64,000 bases of DNA from Escherichia phage vB_EcoM_EP57, in sequence record OR544956, one strand, 5' to 3'. Within the stretch, counting starts at the first letter, position 1; the number at the start of each line of letters is the position of its first letter. Made by a program: the position numbers and the translations under genes. A model generated the notes under the pieces. The model was not told the origin of the DNA. It saw only the letters and a program-made list of their open reading frames with translations, and did not search any database. Of this stretch, positions 21,554-52,044 are shown piece after piece.

Positions 21554-21632
21554 TGGAGGCGGGAATTGGATTTGAACCAATGATCTCCAGCATATGAAAC
21601 TGGCGAGGACGACCAGACTCCTCTATCCCGCT
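21554..21632 (-). tRNA. tRNA-Met (anticodon CAT), CCA encoded
   Basis: hand-folded cloverleaf; T arm ATTGG-TTCAAAT-CCAAT; anticodon loop TTCATAT; A1:C72 mismatch noted. Confidence 0.5.
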
Positions 21633-21638
21633 ATTATG

Positions 21639-21710
21639 TATCCCGTGCTGGATTCGAACCAGCATCACAATAAGCTGTGGAACTCTTATCCTGTAAGTCT
21701 AACGGGAAAC
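21639..21710 (-). tRNA. tRNA-like element, anticodon not resolved (possible pseudo-tRNA)
   Basis: T arm GCTGG-TTCGAAT-CCAGC and acceptor-like ends, but no canonical anticodon arm found by eye. Confidence 0.25.
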
Positions 21711-21784
21711 TGGTTGTTTCGACAAGAATCGAACTTGTGTCTCACGATTATCAGTCGTGGGTTCTACCATTGAACTACGAAACA
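21711..21784 (-). tRNA. tRNA-Ile (anticodon GAT), CCA encoded
   Basis: acceptor TGTTTCG/CGAAACA, D arm GTTC-AATGGTA-GAAC, anticodon arm CACGA-CTGATAA-TCGTG. Confidence 0.65.
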
Positions 21785-21790
21785 TTAAAT

Positions 21791-21867
21791 TGGTCGGAAT
21801 TGCAGGATTCGAACCTGCGACCCTACGCTCCCAAAGCGTATGCTCTACCAAACTGAGCTAAATTCCG
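21791..21867 (-). tRNA. tRNA-Pro (anticodon TGG), CCA encoded
   Basis: acceptor CGGAATT/AATTCCG, D arm GCTC-AGTTTGGTA-GAGC, anticodon arm TACGC-TTTGGGA-GCGTA. Confidence 0.65.
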
Positions 21868-21960
21868 TCATAACATTCTAAAGGTACACCGCAAAAGAAA
21901 GTGTTCGGCGGCTCCTCGTTTTTAACTTCACACTTGAGGTAGTGACTCACCTTTGTTATA

Positions 21961-22036
21961 TGGCTGGTCTGTCTGGATTTGAACCAAACCTACGACAGTC
22001 AAAGTGTCGTGTGCTACCGGACTACACTACAAACCA
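21961..22036 (-). tRNA. tRNA-Gln (anticodon TTG), CCA encoded
   Basis: anticodon arm CGACA-CTTTGAC-TGTCG; T loop TTCAAAT; acceptor pairs with one G-U. Confidence 0.55.
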
Positions 22037-22134
22037 ATAAATCATTTAATGAAGGGCAACCAGAAGAGGTGTGAGAGAAGGAGAAAACCATGAGTAAAAG
22101 AGAAAGTTTTCTGGCAACCCTTTATTAAATAATT

Positions 22135-22208
22135 TGGAGCGTTCTACGAGGATCGAACTCGTGCCGCCGACTTGGAAGGACGGAATGCTACCGCTACACC
22201 AAGAACGC
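22135..22208 (-). tRNA. tRNA-Gly (anticodon TCC), CCA encoded
   Basis: acceptor GCGTTCT/AGAACGC; anticodon loop CTTCCAA; T arm ACGAG-TTCGATC-CTCGT. Confidence 0.5.
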
Positions 22209-22219
22209 CCTACATCTTT

Positions 22220-22249
22220 ACTATACTACATTTTACTATTGGTTGTCAA
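22220..22249 (-). promoter_or_regulatory. promoter with AACTATTGACAA element, start site just upstream of the tRNA at 22208
   Basis: minus strand TTGACA - 18 nt - TATAGT. Confidence 0.45.
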
Positions 22250-22438
22250 TAGTTTTATTGAGTGGGACAGTGACGAGTATCCCGTTGGGTGACTAGCCCT
22301 ACGTTCGGTAAGCTAACTTAAAATAATACAAAACCAAAGTCAAATATTATTCTTCGTTGCTGTCGATGGGAGAGCCGCTTCTCATTTTGCCCCATCCAAC
22401 CCTACTCCGGTCAAGTTTCGGGTAACTCTTTTTGTGTG

Positions 22439-22527
22439 ATCAACACAATACTAAGAACACTGTCTTTCGAACAGACCTTGTGCACAGGATACGACGATCA
22501 ATCACAGTGCTCTTAATGTTGTGTTGG
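22439..22527 (-). ncRNA. tRNA-like degenerate element (GTTCGAA loop, 8-bp terminal pairing), not a canonical tRNA
   Basis: ends CAACACAA/TTGTGTTG pair; internal hairpin with TTCGAA loop; no cloverleaf could be completed. Confidence 0.2.
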
Positions 22528-22599
22528 TGCTCCCACACTGAATCGAACAGAGATCCACGGATTACAAAACCGTTGTAATAGCCATTATACTATAGGAGC
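22525..22599 (-). tRNA. tRNA-Thr (anticodon TGT), CCA encoded
   Basis: acceptor GCTCCTA/TGGGAGC (one G-U); anticodon loop TTTGTAA. Confidence 0.45.
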
Positions 22600-22605
22600 A
22601 AAGCT

Positions 22606-22682
22606 GGGACTCGGCAGGATTCGATACCTGCAATTCCAGAAGCCTCTTGGCGACTGGGGGTTTACCTTAACTCTACAAGTCC
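22606..22682 (-). tRNA. tRNA, anticodon not resolved by eye
   Basis: acceptor GGACTTG/CGAGTCC pairs; T-arm-like GCAGG-TATCGAAT-CCTGC with 8-nt loop. Confidence 0.3.
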
Positions 22683-22689
22683 ATAATTC

Positions 22690-22775
22690 TGGCGATGAGT
22701 ATAGGATTTGAACCTATATCGTTCTTTCGAACACGGATTAACAGTCCGCCGCTTAAACCATTCAGCCAACTCATC
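22690..22775 (-). tRNA. class II (long variable arm) tRNA with apparent anticodon GTT
   Basis: acceptor GATGAGT/ACTCATC; anticodon arm GCGGA-CTGTTAA-TCCGT; variable arm GTTC-GAAA-GAAC; T arm ATAGG-TTCAAAT-CCTAT. Confidence 0.45.
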
Positions 22776-22781
22776 TTAATT

Positions 22782-22869
22782 TGGTGGTGAGTGATGGAGT
22801 TGAACCACCCGAATCGCAATGATAACAGATTTACAGTCTGCCCCGCTACCCCTACGGAATTAACTCACC
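22782..22869 (-). tRNA. tRNA-Tyr (anticodon GTA), class II, CCA encoded
   Basis: acceptor GGTGAGT/ACTCACC; anticodon arm GCAGA-CTGTAAA-TCTGT; T arm GGTGG-TTCAACT-CCATC. Confidence 0.6.
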
Positions 22870-22947
22870 TAAATACTAATATTTAAATTCTTTTTAAAAT
22901 AGCCAGTGTTCACACCACTAACTATGTAAGCCATATTAAAAAGAACT

Positions 22948-23033
22948 TGGCGGTAGATGTAGGACTCGAACCTACACGCCGTTTCCGACTACAGTTTAGC
23001 AAACTGTCGTGGCTACCATTTCACCAATCTACC
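22948..23033 (-). tRNA. tRNA-Ser (anticodon GCT), class II, CCA encoded
   Basis: acceptor GGTAGAT/ATCTACC; anticodon arm ACAGT-TTGCTAA-ACTGT; long variable arm. Confidence 0.6.
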
Positions 23034-23038
23034 TAATC

Positions 23039-23129
23039 TGGCGGAAGGAGGGAGAGTCGAACTCCCAAGGCTCTTTCAAGCTCGGCGGTTTTCAAGACCG
23101 TTTTCGTCGCCACGTCGATTTGCCCTTCC
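23039..23129 (-). tRNA. tRNA-Ser (anticodon TGA), class II, CCA encoded
   Basis: acceptor GGAAGGG/TCCTTCC; anticodon loop CTTGAAA; long variable arm; T arm GGGAG-TTCGACT-CTCCC. Confidence 0.5.
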
Positions 23130-23138
23130 ATACTTATA

Positions 23139-23167
23139 ATCTAACATAAAATAATGTTTGTTGTCAA
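23139..23167 (-). promoter_or_regulatory. promoter with AACTATTGACAA element, start site at the tRNA-Ser 5' end
   Basis: minus strand TTGACA - 17 nt - TTAGAT. Confidence 0.4.
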
Positions 23168-23363
23168 TAGTTTTTTAAAACATTTTACCATGAATGGTGA
23201 CTCCACCAACCCCCGTTCTCCACGAACGGTGCTCTTCGAGCATTTATGTCTTCTAATATAACCGTGGCCTTTGTTTATAATGTCTGACATACTTGCCTCA
23301 TTCTCTGCCACCATGATCAGTAGTGGGTTCAAATTACTTGAGCTAATTCATGTTAAAATGTTC

Positions 23364-23438
23364 TGGTGTCTTTACAAGGAATCGAACCTTGACTAAGAGT
23401 TTAGAAGACTCCTGTGCTATCCATTACACCATAAAGAC
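23364..23438 (-). tRNA. tRNA-Arg (anticodon TCT), CCA encoded
   Basis: acceptor GTCTTTA/TAAAGAC; anticodon arm GGAGT-CTTCTAA-ACTCT; T arm CAAGG-TTCGATT-CCTTG. Confidence 0.6.
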
Positions 23439-23440
23439 GT

Positions 23441-23515
23441 TGGTGGCCCTGGCTGGTTTCGATCCAGCTACCTATCGGTTATGAGCCGACAGCTCTCCCA
23501 TTGAGCTACAGGGCC
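23441..23515 (-). tRNA. tRNA-Met (anticodon CAT; could be fMet or Ile2), CCA encoded
   Basis: acceptor GGCCCTG/CAGGGCC; D arm GCTC-AATGGGA-GAGC; anticodon arm GTCGG-CTCATAA-CCGAT. Confidence 0.6.
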
Positions 23516-46485: not shown

Positions 46486-46963
46486 TATACTTATACTCCC
46501 TTTTCGGAGGGAGTATTTTTAAGGAGGGATTATGCAGAGCGGAGAAGAACTTTTAGAGAAACAATTCTCAACGCGTTAAGTTATATAGTTTTTCTAAGCA
46601 ATCTTGATGTGAATGAGATACTTTTACGGCGCGAAGGTAATTTCTGGAGCGTTAAATATCATGCAACAAGGTCTGTAATCTACCTGGAAGAGGCGGAATT
46701 CTCTTTGGTAGAATGATCCGAGGAGTAGTTATGCGTTCAACTTTCACTGGCAAAATAAATGCTGGTTTGATTTTTACAGCAGTAAGCATTCTTAGCAAAA
46801 AGTTTAAAGTTGTTAACTTACCTGTGTGTGTCGATTTCGATCATGTTTTTGATCCTTCGAACCCCACTCGTTGCATAGTAAGGAGCAATGTTGAAAACCC
46901 AACAGAAAATCTTTTTATGTAACAAAACCATCTCAAAGCATACTTAACCAGGTTGAGGCGAAA

Positions 46964-47302
46964 TTGATACCTAACGGTAAATATTACTCCTTTTTACCTT
47001 GTAAGTCGGTTGAAGTAGAGAATAGCAATACTTTCGCTAATAACTTGTCTGTATTCGTTTTCTTTGTTTCACAGGAAGACGAAACAGATGAAATGGTAGC
47101 AACAGTGAGATCACTTTATGACTCTTTAGGGGTTGTTTATAGTCAACAAGTGTGCGAAAATAATAAAGCCTGTGTAGATTTCATTATCAACGGTATTTGT
47201 GTTTGTAGAGTAGAATCTTTTTGGCTGCACGATACATATGTGACTGTAGCAGAGGTTATATCTGAACCAAGATTTAGTCATGCAGTTTCGTTAATAATTT
47301 GA
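46964..47302 (+). CDS. hypothetical protein
   Basis: 112-aa ORF. Confidence 0.3.
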   Translation: MIPNGKYYSFLPCKSVEVENSNTFANNLSVFVFFVSQEDETDEMVATVRSLYDSLGVVYSQQVCENNKACVDFIINGICVCRVESFWLHDTYVTVAEVISEPRFSHAVSLII

Positions 47303-48697: not shown

Positions 48698-49279
48698 ATG
48701 GCAGAACTGTTCTATACGGGAGTTGGAAGTAGGGACATATCTGAAGAAGAGTGGGCTTTGATGGTAGGCATAGGGAAATGGCTTTCAAACCTTGGGTTTA
48801 AATTACGGTCTGGGAAGGCAGAGGGTAGTGATTCTGCTTTTGAAACAGGTGTCCAAGAGTCTGAAAATCCTACTAACAAGGAGATTTATGTTCCTTGGGA
48901 AAATTTCAAAGGTAATCAGATTCCAGGTGATGTTATTGTTCTTGCAAAACCAGATACAATGAACTATGCTATCTCTGTGCAATGGATTAAAGATGTTCAC
49001 CCAGCTTATGAAAAGCTTAAGCAGGGTGCTAGAAAATTGCACCAACGTAATGTGCATCAAGTGTTAGGCAGAGATTTGGAGAATCCTGCTCCATCATGTT
49101 TCTTATTGGCTTGTGCTAATACTGATAAACATGGGGATGCAAAAGGTGGAACAGCTACGGCTTGGAAGATAGCTAAAGCCAATAATGTTCCTTGTTTAAA
49201 CATTCGTGGGAAAACAAAACAAGAGATTTACGATTTTCTACGACCTTTGGTAATGAGGGCGATAACAAGTGATTCCTAG
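48698..49279 (+). CDS. DprA/Smf-like Rossmann-fold (SLOG) protein
   Basis: YTGVGSRDIS...LRSGKAEGSDSA matches the DprA GSR...SG.A.G.D pattern; ATG at 48698 with RBS. Confidence 0.45.
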   Translation: MAELFYTGVGSRDISEEEWALMVGIGKWLSNLGFKLRSGKAEGSDSAFETGVQESENPTNKEIYVPWENFKGNQIPGDVIVLAKPDTMNYAISVQWIKDVHPAYEKLKQGARKLHQRNVHQVLGRDLENPAPSCFLLACANTDKHGDAKGGTATAWKIAKANNVPCLNIRGKTKQEIYDFLRPLVMRAITSDS

Positions 49280-49781: not shown

Positions 49782-50050
49782 CAAGTTTTGAAAGTAACTT
49801 CGTTACCGCTTGGGAAGCTTGGGATGAAATGGGTGTTGGGGAACTTTATTTTTACAATGTAACACTACGCCCAGAGTATGTTTACCTGGTACCAGAAGGA
49901 ACAGTTCAAATTGGCATGTATTTGTCTTCTCAAGACGGTGTTGTTCAATTTGAGTTTTATTCAAACACAACGGACAACGAATTTACATACCGCGCATTTC
50001 ATGTCAACATGTCTTTAGGAGAGGAGAAATTTTATGACGACCAAGTTTAA
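49760..50050 (+). CDS. hypothetical protein
   Basis: 96-aa ORF with RBS. Confidence 0.35.
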   Translation: MAEFGSVTSFESNFVTAWEAWDEMGVGELYFYNVTLRPEYVYLVPEGTVQIGMYLSSQDGVVQFEFYSNTTDNEFTYRAFHVNMSLGEEKFYDDQV

Positions 50051-50231
50051 AACAGTAGAAGAAGCCGTAAAAGCAGCTTATGAGGCTTTAGCGGAAGCAG
50101 AGCAGTTAGCAGACGAGACTGGTGAAGGTTTCAGCTTCTCCCCTGAATATGGGATGGGTGGTTATTATGATCCAGAAGATGAAAATGAGAATACTGGAAC
50201 AAATTGGCATCCATCTTCTTTAAGTTGTTAA
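50034..50231 (+). CDS. small acidic protein, family member 1 (C-terminal W-x-SS-x-C motif)
   Basis: 65 aa ending NWHPSSLSC. Confidence 0.4.
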   Translation: MTTKFKTVEEAVKAAYEALAEAEQLADETGEGFSFSPEYGMGGYYDPEDENENTGTNWHPSSLSC

Positions 50232-50242
50232 TAGGAGGTAAA

Positions 50243-50512
50243 GTGGGAATCGAAGATATCAAAGGTTATAAACCGCATACCGATGACAAAATTGGTAAAG
50301 TGAATGCTATTAAAGATGCTGAAGTTCGATTAGGATTAATCTTTGATGCTCTAATGTCTGAATTGTGGGCTGAACTGGATGATTGTGAAGATTTGGAAGA
50401 GTCTACCAATATATCCACCCGCCTTGACCAAATTTCAATAGCAAAGACTAAGTTGAAAGAAGCTTCTATGTGGGCCTGTCGTTCCGTTTTCCAACCAGAG
50501 GAGAAATACTAA
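50243..50512 (+). CDS. hypothetical acidic protein
   Basis: GTG at 50243 after AGGAGG. Confidence 0.3.
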   Translation: MGIEDIKGYKPHTDDKIGKVNAIKDAEVRLGLIFDALMSELWAELDDCEDLEESTNISTRLDQISIAKTKLKEASMWACRSVFQPEEKY

Positions 50513-50730
50513 TGAGTTATCGTAATGTTGAAGAATTAACTGAAAAAGCCCAAGCTATTATGGCTTTGGTGGACGAACTTACAAAAGAAGCTGAAGATGC
50601 TGGTTTTGGTCTTAGTTTAGAAGATGACGCAATCTGTTTTGAAGATTGGCAATCCTCTTCTTGTTATGGTGAAGGTGATGATGGTTTCGTTGTTAATTCT
50701 CAAGGCGTTTGGCACAGTAGTAGCTGTTAA
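50512..50730 (+). CDS. small acidic protein, family member 2
   Basis: ATG at 50512 after GAGGAG; ends GVWHSSSC. Confidence 0.4.
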   Translation: MSYRNVEELTEKAQAIMALVDELTKEAEDAGFGLSLEDDAICFEDWQSSSCYGEGDDGFVVNSQGVWHSSSC

Positions 50731-50739
50731 GGAGAGATT

Positions 50740-51012
50740 GTGGAGTCTGAAGGCGAACTGCTGATAAAAAAGAAAGTTAAAGAGATGGAACAAGCACAAA
50801 GAAAGTTTCGTAAGGAAATTGAAGAACTTTGTGAACAGTTTCAGGAACAAGCTTGGATAGGTGACTACGGTAACGGAGAAACTTATTACCCTACAGGAAC
50901 GCCAGCCGCAGATCACTATATTGATTTCATTTGTGAAGATTATGGTGTAGAGTTGGATGAAAATGGTTTAACCACAAGAGGTGTTTGGATCTCTTCTTCC
51001 TCAATGTGTTAG
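50740..51012 (+). CDS. small acidic protein, family member 3
   Basis: 90 aa ending GVWISSSSMC; RBS AGGAG. Confidence 0.4.
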   Translation: MESEGELLIKKKVKEMEQAQRKFRKEIEELCEQFQEQAWIGDYGNGETYYPTGTPAADHYIDFICEDYGVELDENGLTTRGVWISSSSMC

Positions 51013-51022
51013 TAAATAATAA

Positions 51023-51044
51023 CCCGCTTCGGCGGGTTTTTTAT
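51023..51044 (+). terminator. rho-independent terminator
   Basis: CCCGC-TTCG-GCGGG followed by TTTTTTAT. Confidence 0.6.
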
Positions 51045-51072
51045 TGACAGGAATCTGGAAGCTTGATAAACT
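51044..51072 (+). promoter_or_regulatory. sigma70-like promoter
   Basis: TTGACA - 17 nt - TAAACT. Confidence 0.35.
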
Positions 51073-51102: not shown

Positions 51103-52044
51103 ATGGTGTTAATTGGTAGCCGTGCATTGCAAATTCATGCTATGGACATGGGAAAAGACTTGTATCGCCCTTGTGTAGATTTAGATTACCTGTGTACAGA
51201 ACAAGAGTGGGAAGAATTATCAAAAATGTTCTCTCAAGACGAGTTTGTTGAACTTGTAGAACGTAAAGGAAACAAAGGCCATGTCAAAATGATAGCTGGT
51301 GCACATTTGGAATACGATATTGCTTCTCAAGGAGATAGCACAGAAGCTTTGATTAGCTATTGTGAAGATTCTGATGATGTTCGTCGAACTTACGCTGGAC
51401 ATGTTGTTGCTCCTTTAGATGTGCTCTACCTTCTTAAAATGAGTCATCGTTTTAAAAAGGATAGTCCTCACTTCTTTAAAACTATGAAAGATATTCATTT
51501 CATGCGGTCACTGGGCGCAAAGATCCCAGAAAATCTTAAGAGTATTTATGAGTTGCGTGAGAAAGAAACATACACTTACTCTCATCCGAACTTAAACGTA
51601 AAAAGTAAAGAGTTCTTTAAAGGTGACGAGGTTCCGTATGTTTATGATCATGATTCTATCCATGAAGCAATCGCGTTAATGGATGCTCCAGCATATAAAT
51701 CTTATATGAAAGATGGAAGTGAAGTTATGACCAGCAAAGAAAAGTTTTTTGCTCAACCAAAACATGTGCGGCTGTTAGGTGTTTATGAAGAAGCGTGTGT
51801 TTTGGCTTTGGAACGTTCACAAATTCCTTTCGGTGAAGAGATCGGAGGTCCAACCCCTAAGCAAAGTTTTATAATGGCTTTATCTAAAGTCTGCACATCC
51901 ATCACTAGTGGTTGGTTTAGGGAATATGCTTGGGAAAACTTTTATGTTGTTACTAAGCTATATGAAAACATGGGCGAAAACGACTATGTTGAACGTTTTA
52001 AAGCTAATCAACATGTAGTTAAGCCTTTTGAAGGAGGTTATTAA
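51103..52044 (+). CDS. hypothetical protein with weak nucleotidyltransferase-like GS...DxD pattern
   Basis: 313 aa; N-terminal LIGSRALQIH...CVDLDYL; spacing longer than canonical minimal NTases. Confidence 0.3.
   Translation: MVLIGSRALQIHAMDMGKDLYRPCVDLDYLCTEQEWEELSKMFSQDEFVELVERKGNKGHVKMIAGAHLEYDIASQGDSTEALISYCEDSDDVRRTYAGHVVAPLDVLYLLKMSHRFKKDSPHFFKTMKDIHFMRSLGAKIPENLKSIYELREKETYTYSHPNLNVKSKEFFKGDEVPYVYDHDSIHEAIALMDAPAYKSYMKDGSEVMTSKEKFFAQPKHVRLLGVYEEACVLALERSQIPFGEEIGGPTPKQSFIMALSKVCTSITSGWFREYAWENFYVVTKLYENMGENDYVERFKANQHVVKPFEGGY

Follow-up and report, generated by a model that had tools for sequence, protein, structure and literature searches.

Analysis of a 64,000-nucleotide stretch of Escherichia phage vB_EcoM_EP57 (sequence record OR544956; this whole stretch is called the window below) revealed three small genes, named here open reading frames (ORFs) A, B, and C, whose acidic products share a C-terminal tail of Trp, Ser-Ser, and a final Cys, and which lie upstream of a gene for a predicted nucleotidyltransferase (NTase). 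The linkage between the two kinds of genes is conserved across lineages of the enzyme, and for this reason the small proteins and the NTase probably function together, with the small proteins more likely to be substrates or regulators of the enzyme than DNA mimics. The trio of features is unusual, as an invariant terminal Cys after Trp-x-x-Ser-Ser is combined with multi-paralog arrays and with a near-obligate pairing to an NTase resembling the MenT and ANT enzymes. The module is widespread, yet every component of it is annotated as hypothetical. Nothing relevant to the motif, the fold, the paralog arrays, or their coupling to the NTase was found in the searchable literature, and all four appear to be previously undescribed.

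The C-terminal motif and its protein family

The initial annotation of this region had described three tandem ORFs with acidic helical N-termini and a common C-terminal Trp/Ser-rich/terminal-Cys motif. The coordinates and endings of the three ORFs were confirmed (Table 1), and when the 1361 stop-to-stop segments of 25 aa or more in all six frames of the 64 kb were scanned with the regular expression W.{1,3}SS.{0,2}C-stop, ORFs A, B, and C were the only matches, a recurrence that far exceeds chance. The acidic, helical character of the N-termini was also borne out, both by the isoelectric points (pI) of the three proteins, with computed net charges of -11.4 (A), -13.4 (B), and -10.4 (C), and by an AlphaFold2 (AF2) model of A with a predicted local distance difference test (pLDDT) score of 90.3, in which a helix at residues 8-29 precedes three strands (E33-38, E41-45, and E58-60). 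The genes are three indeed; strictly tandem they are not, as an 89-aa gene homologous to Acb2 (described below) lies between A and B. ORF B starts at the ATG at 50512, overlapping the stop codon of this upstream gene in the sequence TAATG, and the GTG start of ORF C at 50740 is preceded by a GGAGAG ribosome-binding site.

Comparison with the orthologs in contig L005, a relative whose NTase is 77% identical to that of the window, gave proportions of nonsynonymous differences (pN) of 0.11-0.16 and of synonymous differences (pS) of 0.62-0.84, the synonymous sites being near saturation. The corresponding ratios of nonsynonymous to synonymous rates (dN/dS) were 0.05 for A and 0.13 for B, and for C the ratio was not computable. 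In addition, the Ser residues of the motif are encoded by codons of both the TCN and the AGY classes (tct tct in A; agt agt agc in B; tct tct tcc tca in C). Because the codon classes switch and pN is far below pS, the conservation is judged to act at the protein level, and by these measures A, B, and C are real genes under purifying selection.

BLASTP of A, B, and C against each other was weak or nil and gave nothing usable. Despite these uninformative pairwise comparisons, matches at the profile level identify the three proteins as homologous, namely as three paralogs of PHROG 899, so that their similarity extends beyond composition. The phrog_899 profile (unknown function) matched A, B, and C with E values of 1.4e-13, 7e-6, and 5.1e-14, respectively, and a family hidden Markov model (HMM) built here matched A at 5e-22, C at 2e-18, and B weakly at 0.026. 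When the B-type subfamily was aligned to the main family with hhalign, a probability of 94.8% and an E value of 4.9e-8 were obtained, with a match spanning the helix, the first strand, and the tail.

A profile search against 1.84 billion cluster representatives at E <=0.001 recovered 308 family clusters (50% identity), and the family spans T4-like, phAPEC8-like, jumbo, Pseudomonas, Acinetobacter, and Aeromonas phages. The common plan begins with an amphipathic helix ending in ..EAE.IADE.G, followed by a strand F.F, a turn (A)YGMGG, and a strand TYYP; a variable acidic linker, which in some members holds an inserted helix or an additional motif copy, then leads to the tail [DE]-G-W-x-[S/A/P]-S-S-x-x-C, with which the protein ends. 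The Y-G-x-G-G/E hairpin that follows the N-terminal helix is present in A (EYGMGGYY) and in C (DYGNGETYY). ORF B carries two motif copies and no YGMGG loop, and throughout its subfamily the YG.GG loop is absent, the tail reads DG.(I/V)W..SSC, and an internal D-W-x-x-S-x-C-(Y)-G-E is found, in which D45, W46, S49, C51, G53, and E54 never vary and Y52 almost never does. Relatives of the C type were detected in 438 phage records, RB69 and JS10 among them, and each of the three types (YGMGG-short, double-motif B-type, and GDYGNGETYYP C-type) is conserved between Phapecoctavirus and T4-like phages.

The tail is strictly kept in these proteins, which outside it drift to 20-30% identity. A terminal Cys was found in 171 of the 176 family proteins retrieved. 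Among 143 divergent Cys-ending representatives, and counting the Cys as position 0, Trp is present at -7 in 141, Ser at -4 in 142, and Ser at -3 in all 143, with Thr at neither Ser position in any of them. Counted from the Trp, the invariant core consists of W, S+3, and S+4, with the Cys at +5 (B-type tails and internal copies) or at +7. An extra internal copy of the motif is present in 12 of 148 representatives (for example, GWESSSEGWESSSEGWVSSSSQC), and 94 of the 148 have a single Cys only; the median pI of the family is 4.47. Some paralogs show degenerate tails: one from Acinetobacter phage AbTZA1 (L132 2291-2494) ends in ...QVWHNSNWSNSEA, without Cys, and another (L074 4244-4480) ends in ...EEWYSSSEAWTPSGCSY, two residues past the Cys. 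The rule of a terminal Cys thus has exceptions.

No Pfam family covers A, B, C, or the PHROG 899 small proteins, and none does in NCBIfam or PADLOC either; scans of A, B, and C against these three collections gave sub-threshold noise of coiled-coil type and nothing more. ORF B matched the NCBIfam model of the SflA class IV lanthipeptide precursor at an E value of 0.05 and 13.5 bits, below the 25-bit cut-off, probably by chance, although the match is of note in view of the Ser/Cys-rich tail. A search of the PDB with the family sequence profile found no relative, and Foldseek comparison of the AF2 model of A against BFVD retrieved uncharacterised members of the family only, with no characterised structural relative among them. 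The PHROG 899 family is phage-only and uncharacterised, and exists only as an unannotated PHROG.

Two further loci in T4-like phages deserve mention. ORF139c and ORF138c of RB69 (L002 3995-4301) look like a single C-type member split by a frameshift, whereas the JS10 gene at L003 4001-4291 is intact. A sequencing error, a pseudogene, or a programmed frameshift could account for the split. T4 Tk.1 (L133 2347-2535, minus strand; LSFEISSEYGDAETYY) gave a weak match to the family HMM, with an E value of 4.5e-4 in a tiny database; this may reflect chance or a distant relationship to the helix-hairpin domain in a protein that lacks the tail.

Linkage of the small proteins to the downstream nucleotidyltransferase

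Among 80 viral contigs fetched via the NTase, 73 carry at least one ORF with a W-SS-C tail. All 196 tail-bearing ORFs of these contigs are on the NTase strand, 195 of them upstream of the enzyme gene and 191 within 2.5 kb. When the NTases were split at 65% identity into 29 lineages, tail-bearing ORFs were found in 27 of these; the next commonest neighbour gene cluster was present in 6/29, and no third conserved component was detected, as no other cluster exceeded that figure. A 217-aa ORF of the window was considered as such a component and rejected, being unrelated to RB69 ORF132c. The number of copies per locus was variable, with none in 7 of the 80 loci, one in 15, two in 22, three in 13, four in 17, and five in 6, and in many loci the last small ORF stops 8-20 nt before the NTase start.

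The linkage was also observed in the reverse direction. A scan for the pattern AYGMGGTY at the DNA level identified 22 loci with family members, and in the 18 of them with enough flanking sequence the NTase was always found downstream on the same strand (18/18). RB69 and JS10 have three and five W-SS-C paralogs, respectively, ahead of the same NTase gene, in arrays located between e.3 and e.2; the e.2/e.3 junction of T4 contains no such module. Three paralogs also abut the NTase gene in a distant T4-like Logan contig. Homologs of the NTase were found in 700 cultured-phage records, with Escherichia, Acinetobacter, Aeromonas, Pseudomonas, Stenotrophomonas, and others as hosts, and among 185,579 species genomes in five contigs only, all of them from metagenome-assembled genomes (MAGs) and all with small ORFs upstream.

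In Brevibacillus phage Sundance (NC_028749), which carries the most divergent NTase lineage, the gene directly upstream of the enzyme (L129 3669-3956) encodes a 95-aa acidic protein with repeated EEEEYSSSYY that ends in ...EEEEYSSSYYEEEEYSSSYYEED. It shows an aromatic-plus-Ser-run repeat with neither Trp nor terminal Cys, and may be an analogous partner in a phage of a Gram-positive host.

Regarding the enzyme itself, its alignment shows invariant G5-S6, D26-x-D28, and E70, the classical signature of pol-beta NTases, followed by a helical, highly conserved C-terminal two thirds (DUF7275) with many invariant residues. Its AF2 model (pLDDT 91.6) has the minimal pol-beta fold of MenT type with the catalytic GS and DxD motifs, and resembles the nucleotidyltransferases MenT1, TglT, and ANT(2''), with MenT1 as the closest structure. 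The AbiEii/DUF1814 and MenT models of Pfam and PADLOC gave no match, nor did any other PADLOC model, and DUF7275 and DUF7277 were the only Pfam matches at E <=1. The enzyme is therefore considered a minimal NTase of MenT/ANT structural type that is distinct and specific to phages. RlaP (PF10127), an RNA-ligase-associated NTase described for jumbo phages, was also considered for this enzyme, an idea prompted by one contig in which Rnl1 adjoins the NTase gene, and was rejected in the absence of a PF10127 match.

The most conserved stretch of the NTase is KVCTSITSGW (residues ~264-273, window positions 51892-51921), which holds the invariant Cys of the enzyme. Its C-T-S-I-T-S-G-W roughly resembles the tail G-W-x-S-S-S-x-x-C of the small proteins read backwards. 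A covariation between the variants SGW and SGR of this stretch and the presence of small proteins was considered and failed, as arrays are also present at two SGR loci and there is relatedness among the loci in question. Homologs from the actinophages Gordonia phage Bachita (L130) and Streptomyces phage Ankus (L131) keep the first ~30 residues and DUF7275; residues ~30-95 of the NTase domain and the Cys of KVCTSITSGW are missing in them, and no W-SS-C ORFs are present upstream. The Bachita homolog gene adjoins a tRNA gene array.

Proposed role of the tail and competing explanations

As a tentative reading, possible rather than probable, we favour that A, B, and C work with the NTase as its acceptor substrates. 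Each small protein is predicted to consist of a helix packed on a three-stranded sheet, whose third strand bears the invariant Trp, followed by the Ser-Ser pair and the terminal Cys. This tail would be offered to the acceptor site of the enzyme, where a Ser hydroxyl would be nucleotidylylated (protein NMP-ylation, the transfer of a nucleoside monophosphate), and the thiol and carboxylate of the terminal Cys would aid recognition, metal binding, or follow-up chemistry. We prefer this version because the conservation is chemical in character, with a Ser-Ser pair that is never Thr and a Cys as the last residue of a protein that otherwise drifts, and also because some members repeat the motif and the Sundance protein keeps an aromatic-plus-Ser-run. 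The extra motif copies and the Sundance repeat point to this aromatic-plus-Ser-run as the functional element, and the strict pattern of the tail fits chemistry, either modification or catalysis, better than packing.

Several observations weigh against a role as substrates. A terminator-like hairpin and a promoter-like sequence separate C from the NTase gene, so that co-transcription is not necessary. The AF2 model packs the Trp into the sheet (E58-60), and the tail may belong to a folded domain instead of being a free peptide. The small proteins are missing from the NTase loci of contigs L009, L010, L011, and L017 and from those of the Gordonia and Streptomyces phages, and the enzymes structurally closest to the NTase have tRNA or small molecules as substrates rather than proteins. 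Finally, the multiplicity of the paralogs gets no specific explanation from a substrate model.

If the NTase modified these tails, which we regard as a realistic though less than even chance, phages would produce a set of small proteins decorated by an enzyme. The decoration would be a Ser-O-nucleotidylylation, possibly extended to a short Ser-linked oligonucleotide, an extension that is conceivable because MenT enzymes add several nucleotides; alternatively, elimination followed by attack of the terminal Cys would produce a lanthionine-like C-terminal ring. In either case, it would represent a previously undescribed virus-encoded protein-nucleotide conjugate, or a system akin to those of ribosomally synthesised and post-translationally modified peptides (RiPPs), in ~700 sequenced phages including RB69.

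A mechanistic template for the substrate model is offered by the type VII pair HepT/MntA, in which an MNT pol-beta NTase AMPylates its genetically paired small partner (PMC7641770). The acceptor there is a Tyr of a HEPN RNase toxin, whereas here the candidate is a Ser in the tail of acidic, non-enzymatic proteins, and a Pfam scan found no HEPN domain here. In the pairs CitX/CitD and MdcG/MdcC, the prosthetic group of a small acidic carrier protein is attached to a Ser residue by a transferase of NTase type. The pairing of a dedicated nucleotidyl-type transferase with a small acidic protein whose Ser is invariant would be common to those systems and to the phage loci; however, no sequence relationship was found (no Pfam match), the carriers have another fold and an internal Ser, and genes for coenzyme A precursors are not nearby. 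With lanthipeptides and other RiPPs the module shares the presence of multi-copy small genes beside one enzyme, although the enzyme, as an NTase, falls outside the recognised classes of RiPP maturases (LanB/M/KC/L, YcaO, rSAM, and similar).

The same gene order could also be read in terms of inhibition, with the small proteins as antitoxin-like pseudo-substrates that bind the NTase and block or tune it while remaining unmodified themselves; the acidic linker and the Trp/Ser-Ser tail would then mimic the acceptor end of a tRNA in the electropositive cleft of the enzyme. MenT1 of M. tuberculosis is blocked by MenA1, a 68-aa protein encoded immediately upstream (PMC10435456), and in the phage loci strongly acidic small proteins such as A, B, and C are likewise encoded upstream on the NTase strand, often ending within the short distance given above. 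We consider this explanation rather less likely than the substrate model, though a serious alternative to it. While the NTase fold is shared with MenAT1, MenA1 is a two-helix V and the phage proteins are predicted to be a helix plus a three-stranded sheet, with no sequence likeness to MenA1, and no likeness of the upstream small proteins to known antitoxins (MenA1, COG5340/AbiEi) was found. The one to five diversified paralogs per NTase would be unusual for an antitoxin, and the invariant W-x-x-S-S-(x-x)-C tail, in which Ser is never Thr or Ala and the last residue is Cys, is under tighter constraint than is usual for a binding interface. In addition, the phage NTase has a much larger conserved helical domain (DUF7275) and no match to the DUF1814/AbiEii or MenT models of Pfam and PADLOC, the module is phage-restricted (5 matches in the 185,579 species genomes, all of them in MAG contigs), and terminator-like and promoter-like sites lie between C and the NTase gene. 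Depending on which of these two roles applies, the module could represent a new viral protein nucleotidylylation or a phage-borne set of regulators for a toxin-type NTase.

Explanations that detach the small proteins from the enzyme fare less well. Independent counter-defence proteins that merely share an island with the NTase, either as nucleic-acid mimics or as sponges of small ligands with a binding pocket built from the Gly-rich YGMGG loop and Ser-Ser-Cys, would agree with the low pI of A, B, and C (4.05-4.40) and of the family as a whole, with the Acb2 sponge gene inside the array, with nearby methyltransferases, a Sir2-like gene, and a phosphatase, typical of accessory or anti-defence regions, and with diversified paralog arrays that suggest an arms race. 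Island sharing, however, leaves unexplained a linkage held in 27 of the 29 lineages, from jumbo, T4-like, Pseudomonas, and Acinetobacter phages to MAG contigs, and related contigs have the array without the Acb2 gene; the linkage of A, B, and C is to the NTase, not to Acb2. The Acb2/Vs.4 sponges are likewise small acidic early phage proteins, although A, B, and C have no similarity to Acb2 or Tad1, and no sequence or structural likeness to Ocr, ArdA, Arn, or any sponge was detected. We therefore find a counter-defence role improbable. The initial annotation had proposed DNA-mimic anti-restriction proteins in view of the acidic composition, but beyond acidity nothing supports this: small size and strong negative charge are all that is shared with Ocr, ArdA, and Arn, and both the invariant motif with its terminal Cys and the linkage to an NTase are absent from the known DNA mimics. 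The assumption that acidic means DNA mimic is thus an unsupported one that these results correct.

The initial annotation had also suggested a shared modification or a metal-binding role. A common chemical role is well supported by the near-invariant W/S/S/C residues, and a shared modification is compatible with the present results, while a metal site within one molecule is unlikely because 94 of the 148 representatives have just one Cys. A further explanation is a hetero-oligomer in which the terminal Cys residues are pooled in a shared metal or Fe-S site or in a redox/thiol relay, the A-, B-, and C-types being non-redundant subunits. The retention of each of the three subtypes between Phapecoctavirus and T4-like phages, which suggests distinct roles, the one invariant Cys per chain, and the invariant Cys of the NTase itself (KVCTSITSGW) would fit such an assembly; against it, the copies vary from one to five per locus with a single copy in many lineages, the family alignment shows no conserved His or Cys partners within the small proteins, and the Sundance variant is entirely devoid of Cys. 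We regard it as very improbable.

Genomic neighbourhood and the Acb2 gene

Between positions 49000 and 52500 the sequence shares 98.6-99.6% identity with phAPEC8-like myoviruses that belong to the genus Phapecoctavirus (among them TSP7_1, tuntematon, and phAPEC8), and by this identity the 64-kb window is assigned to a phAPEC8-like Phapecoctavirus. In the RefSeq record of phage tuntematon (99.3% identical), the same three coding sequences are called as ORFs A, B, and C, and all of them, together with the large downstream gene, are labelled as hypothetical proteins. The features discussed here are listed in Table 1.

Table 1. Features of the small-protein array and its flanks, in window coordinates.
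Feature	Position	Strand	Properties
ORF A	50034..50231	+	65 aa, pI 4.05; short YGMGG-type (EYGMGGYYDP); ends NWHPSSLSC
Tail motif of ORF A	50205..50228	+	W-H-P-S-S-L-S-C, then stop
T4 Vs.4/Acb2 homolog, not of the W-SS-C family	50243..50512	+	89 aa, GTG start; PF24729 (Acb2/Tad1) E 1.2e-19; RefSeq coding sequence in tuntematon
ORF B	50512..50730	+	72 aa, pI 4.05; B-type; helix then GFGLSL; ends GVWHSSSC
Internal motif copy of ORF B	50647..50664	+	W-Q-S-S-S-C then YGE (DWQSSSC-YGE)
Tail motif of ORF B	50710..50727	+	W-H-S-S-S-C; short spacing, Cys at W+5
ORF C	50740..51012	+	90 aa, GTG start, pI 4.40; C-type (GDYGNGETYYP); ends GVWISSSSMC
Tail motif of ORF C	50986..51009	+	W-I-S-S-S-S-M-C
Intrinsic-terminator-like hairpin	51021..51038	+	7 bp stem, 5 GC pairs, T-run; directly 3' of C
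Sigma-70-like promoter, 5' of the NTase gene	51044..51072	+	TTGACA-17-TAAACT + TG extension; consensus match only
Partner NTase gene	51103..52044	+	313 aa; DUF7277 + DUF7275

The protein encoded between A and B matched the solved T4 Vs.4 structure (PDB 7UQ2) over its full length with an E value of 1.8e-42, a similarity that identifies it as Acb2, a cyclic-oligonucleotide sponge that acts against the cyclic-oligonucleotide-based antiphage signalling system (CBASS). An anti-CBASS gene is thereby flagged within the array. This gene looks like an insertion into the small-protein array, because in contig L005 the orthologs of A, B, and C are contiguous without it.

The terminator-like hairpin after C is annotated as a terminator in phAPEC8 records, and a scan of 47-54 kb against Rfam found no RNA family. 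In the wider neighbourhood, the tuntematon RefSeq record includes DNA methyltransferases, a NinI-like phosphatase, a DprA-like protein, and a Sir2-like protein. At 46713-47302 of the window, the same record gives the name 'histidyl tRNA synthetase' to two small ORFs (69 and 112 aa), by appearance a probable annotation artefact. Finally, 10 tRNA genes are clustered on the minus strand of the window at 21554-23515.

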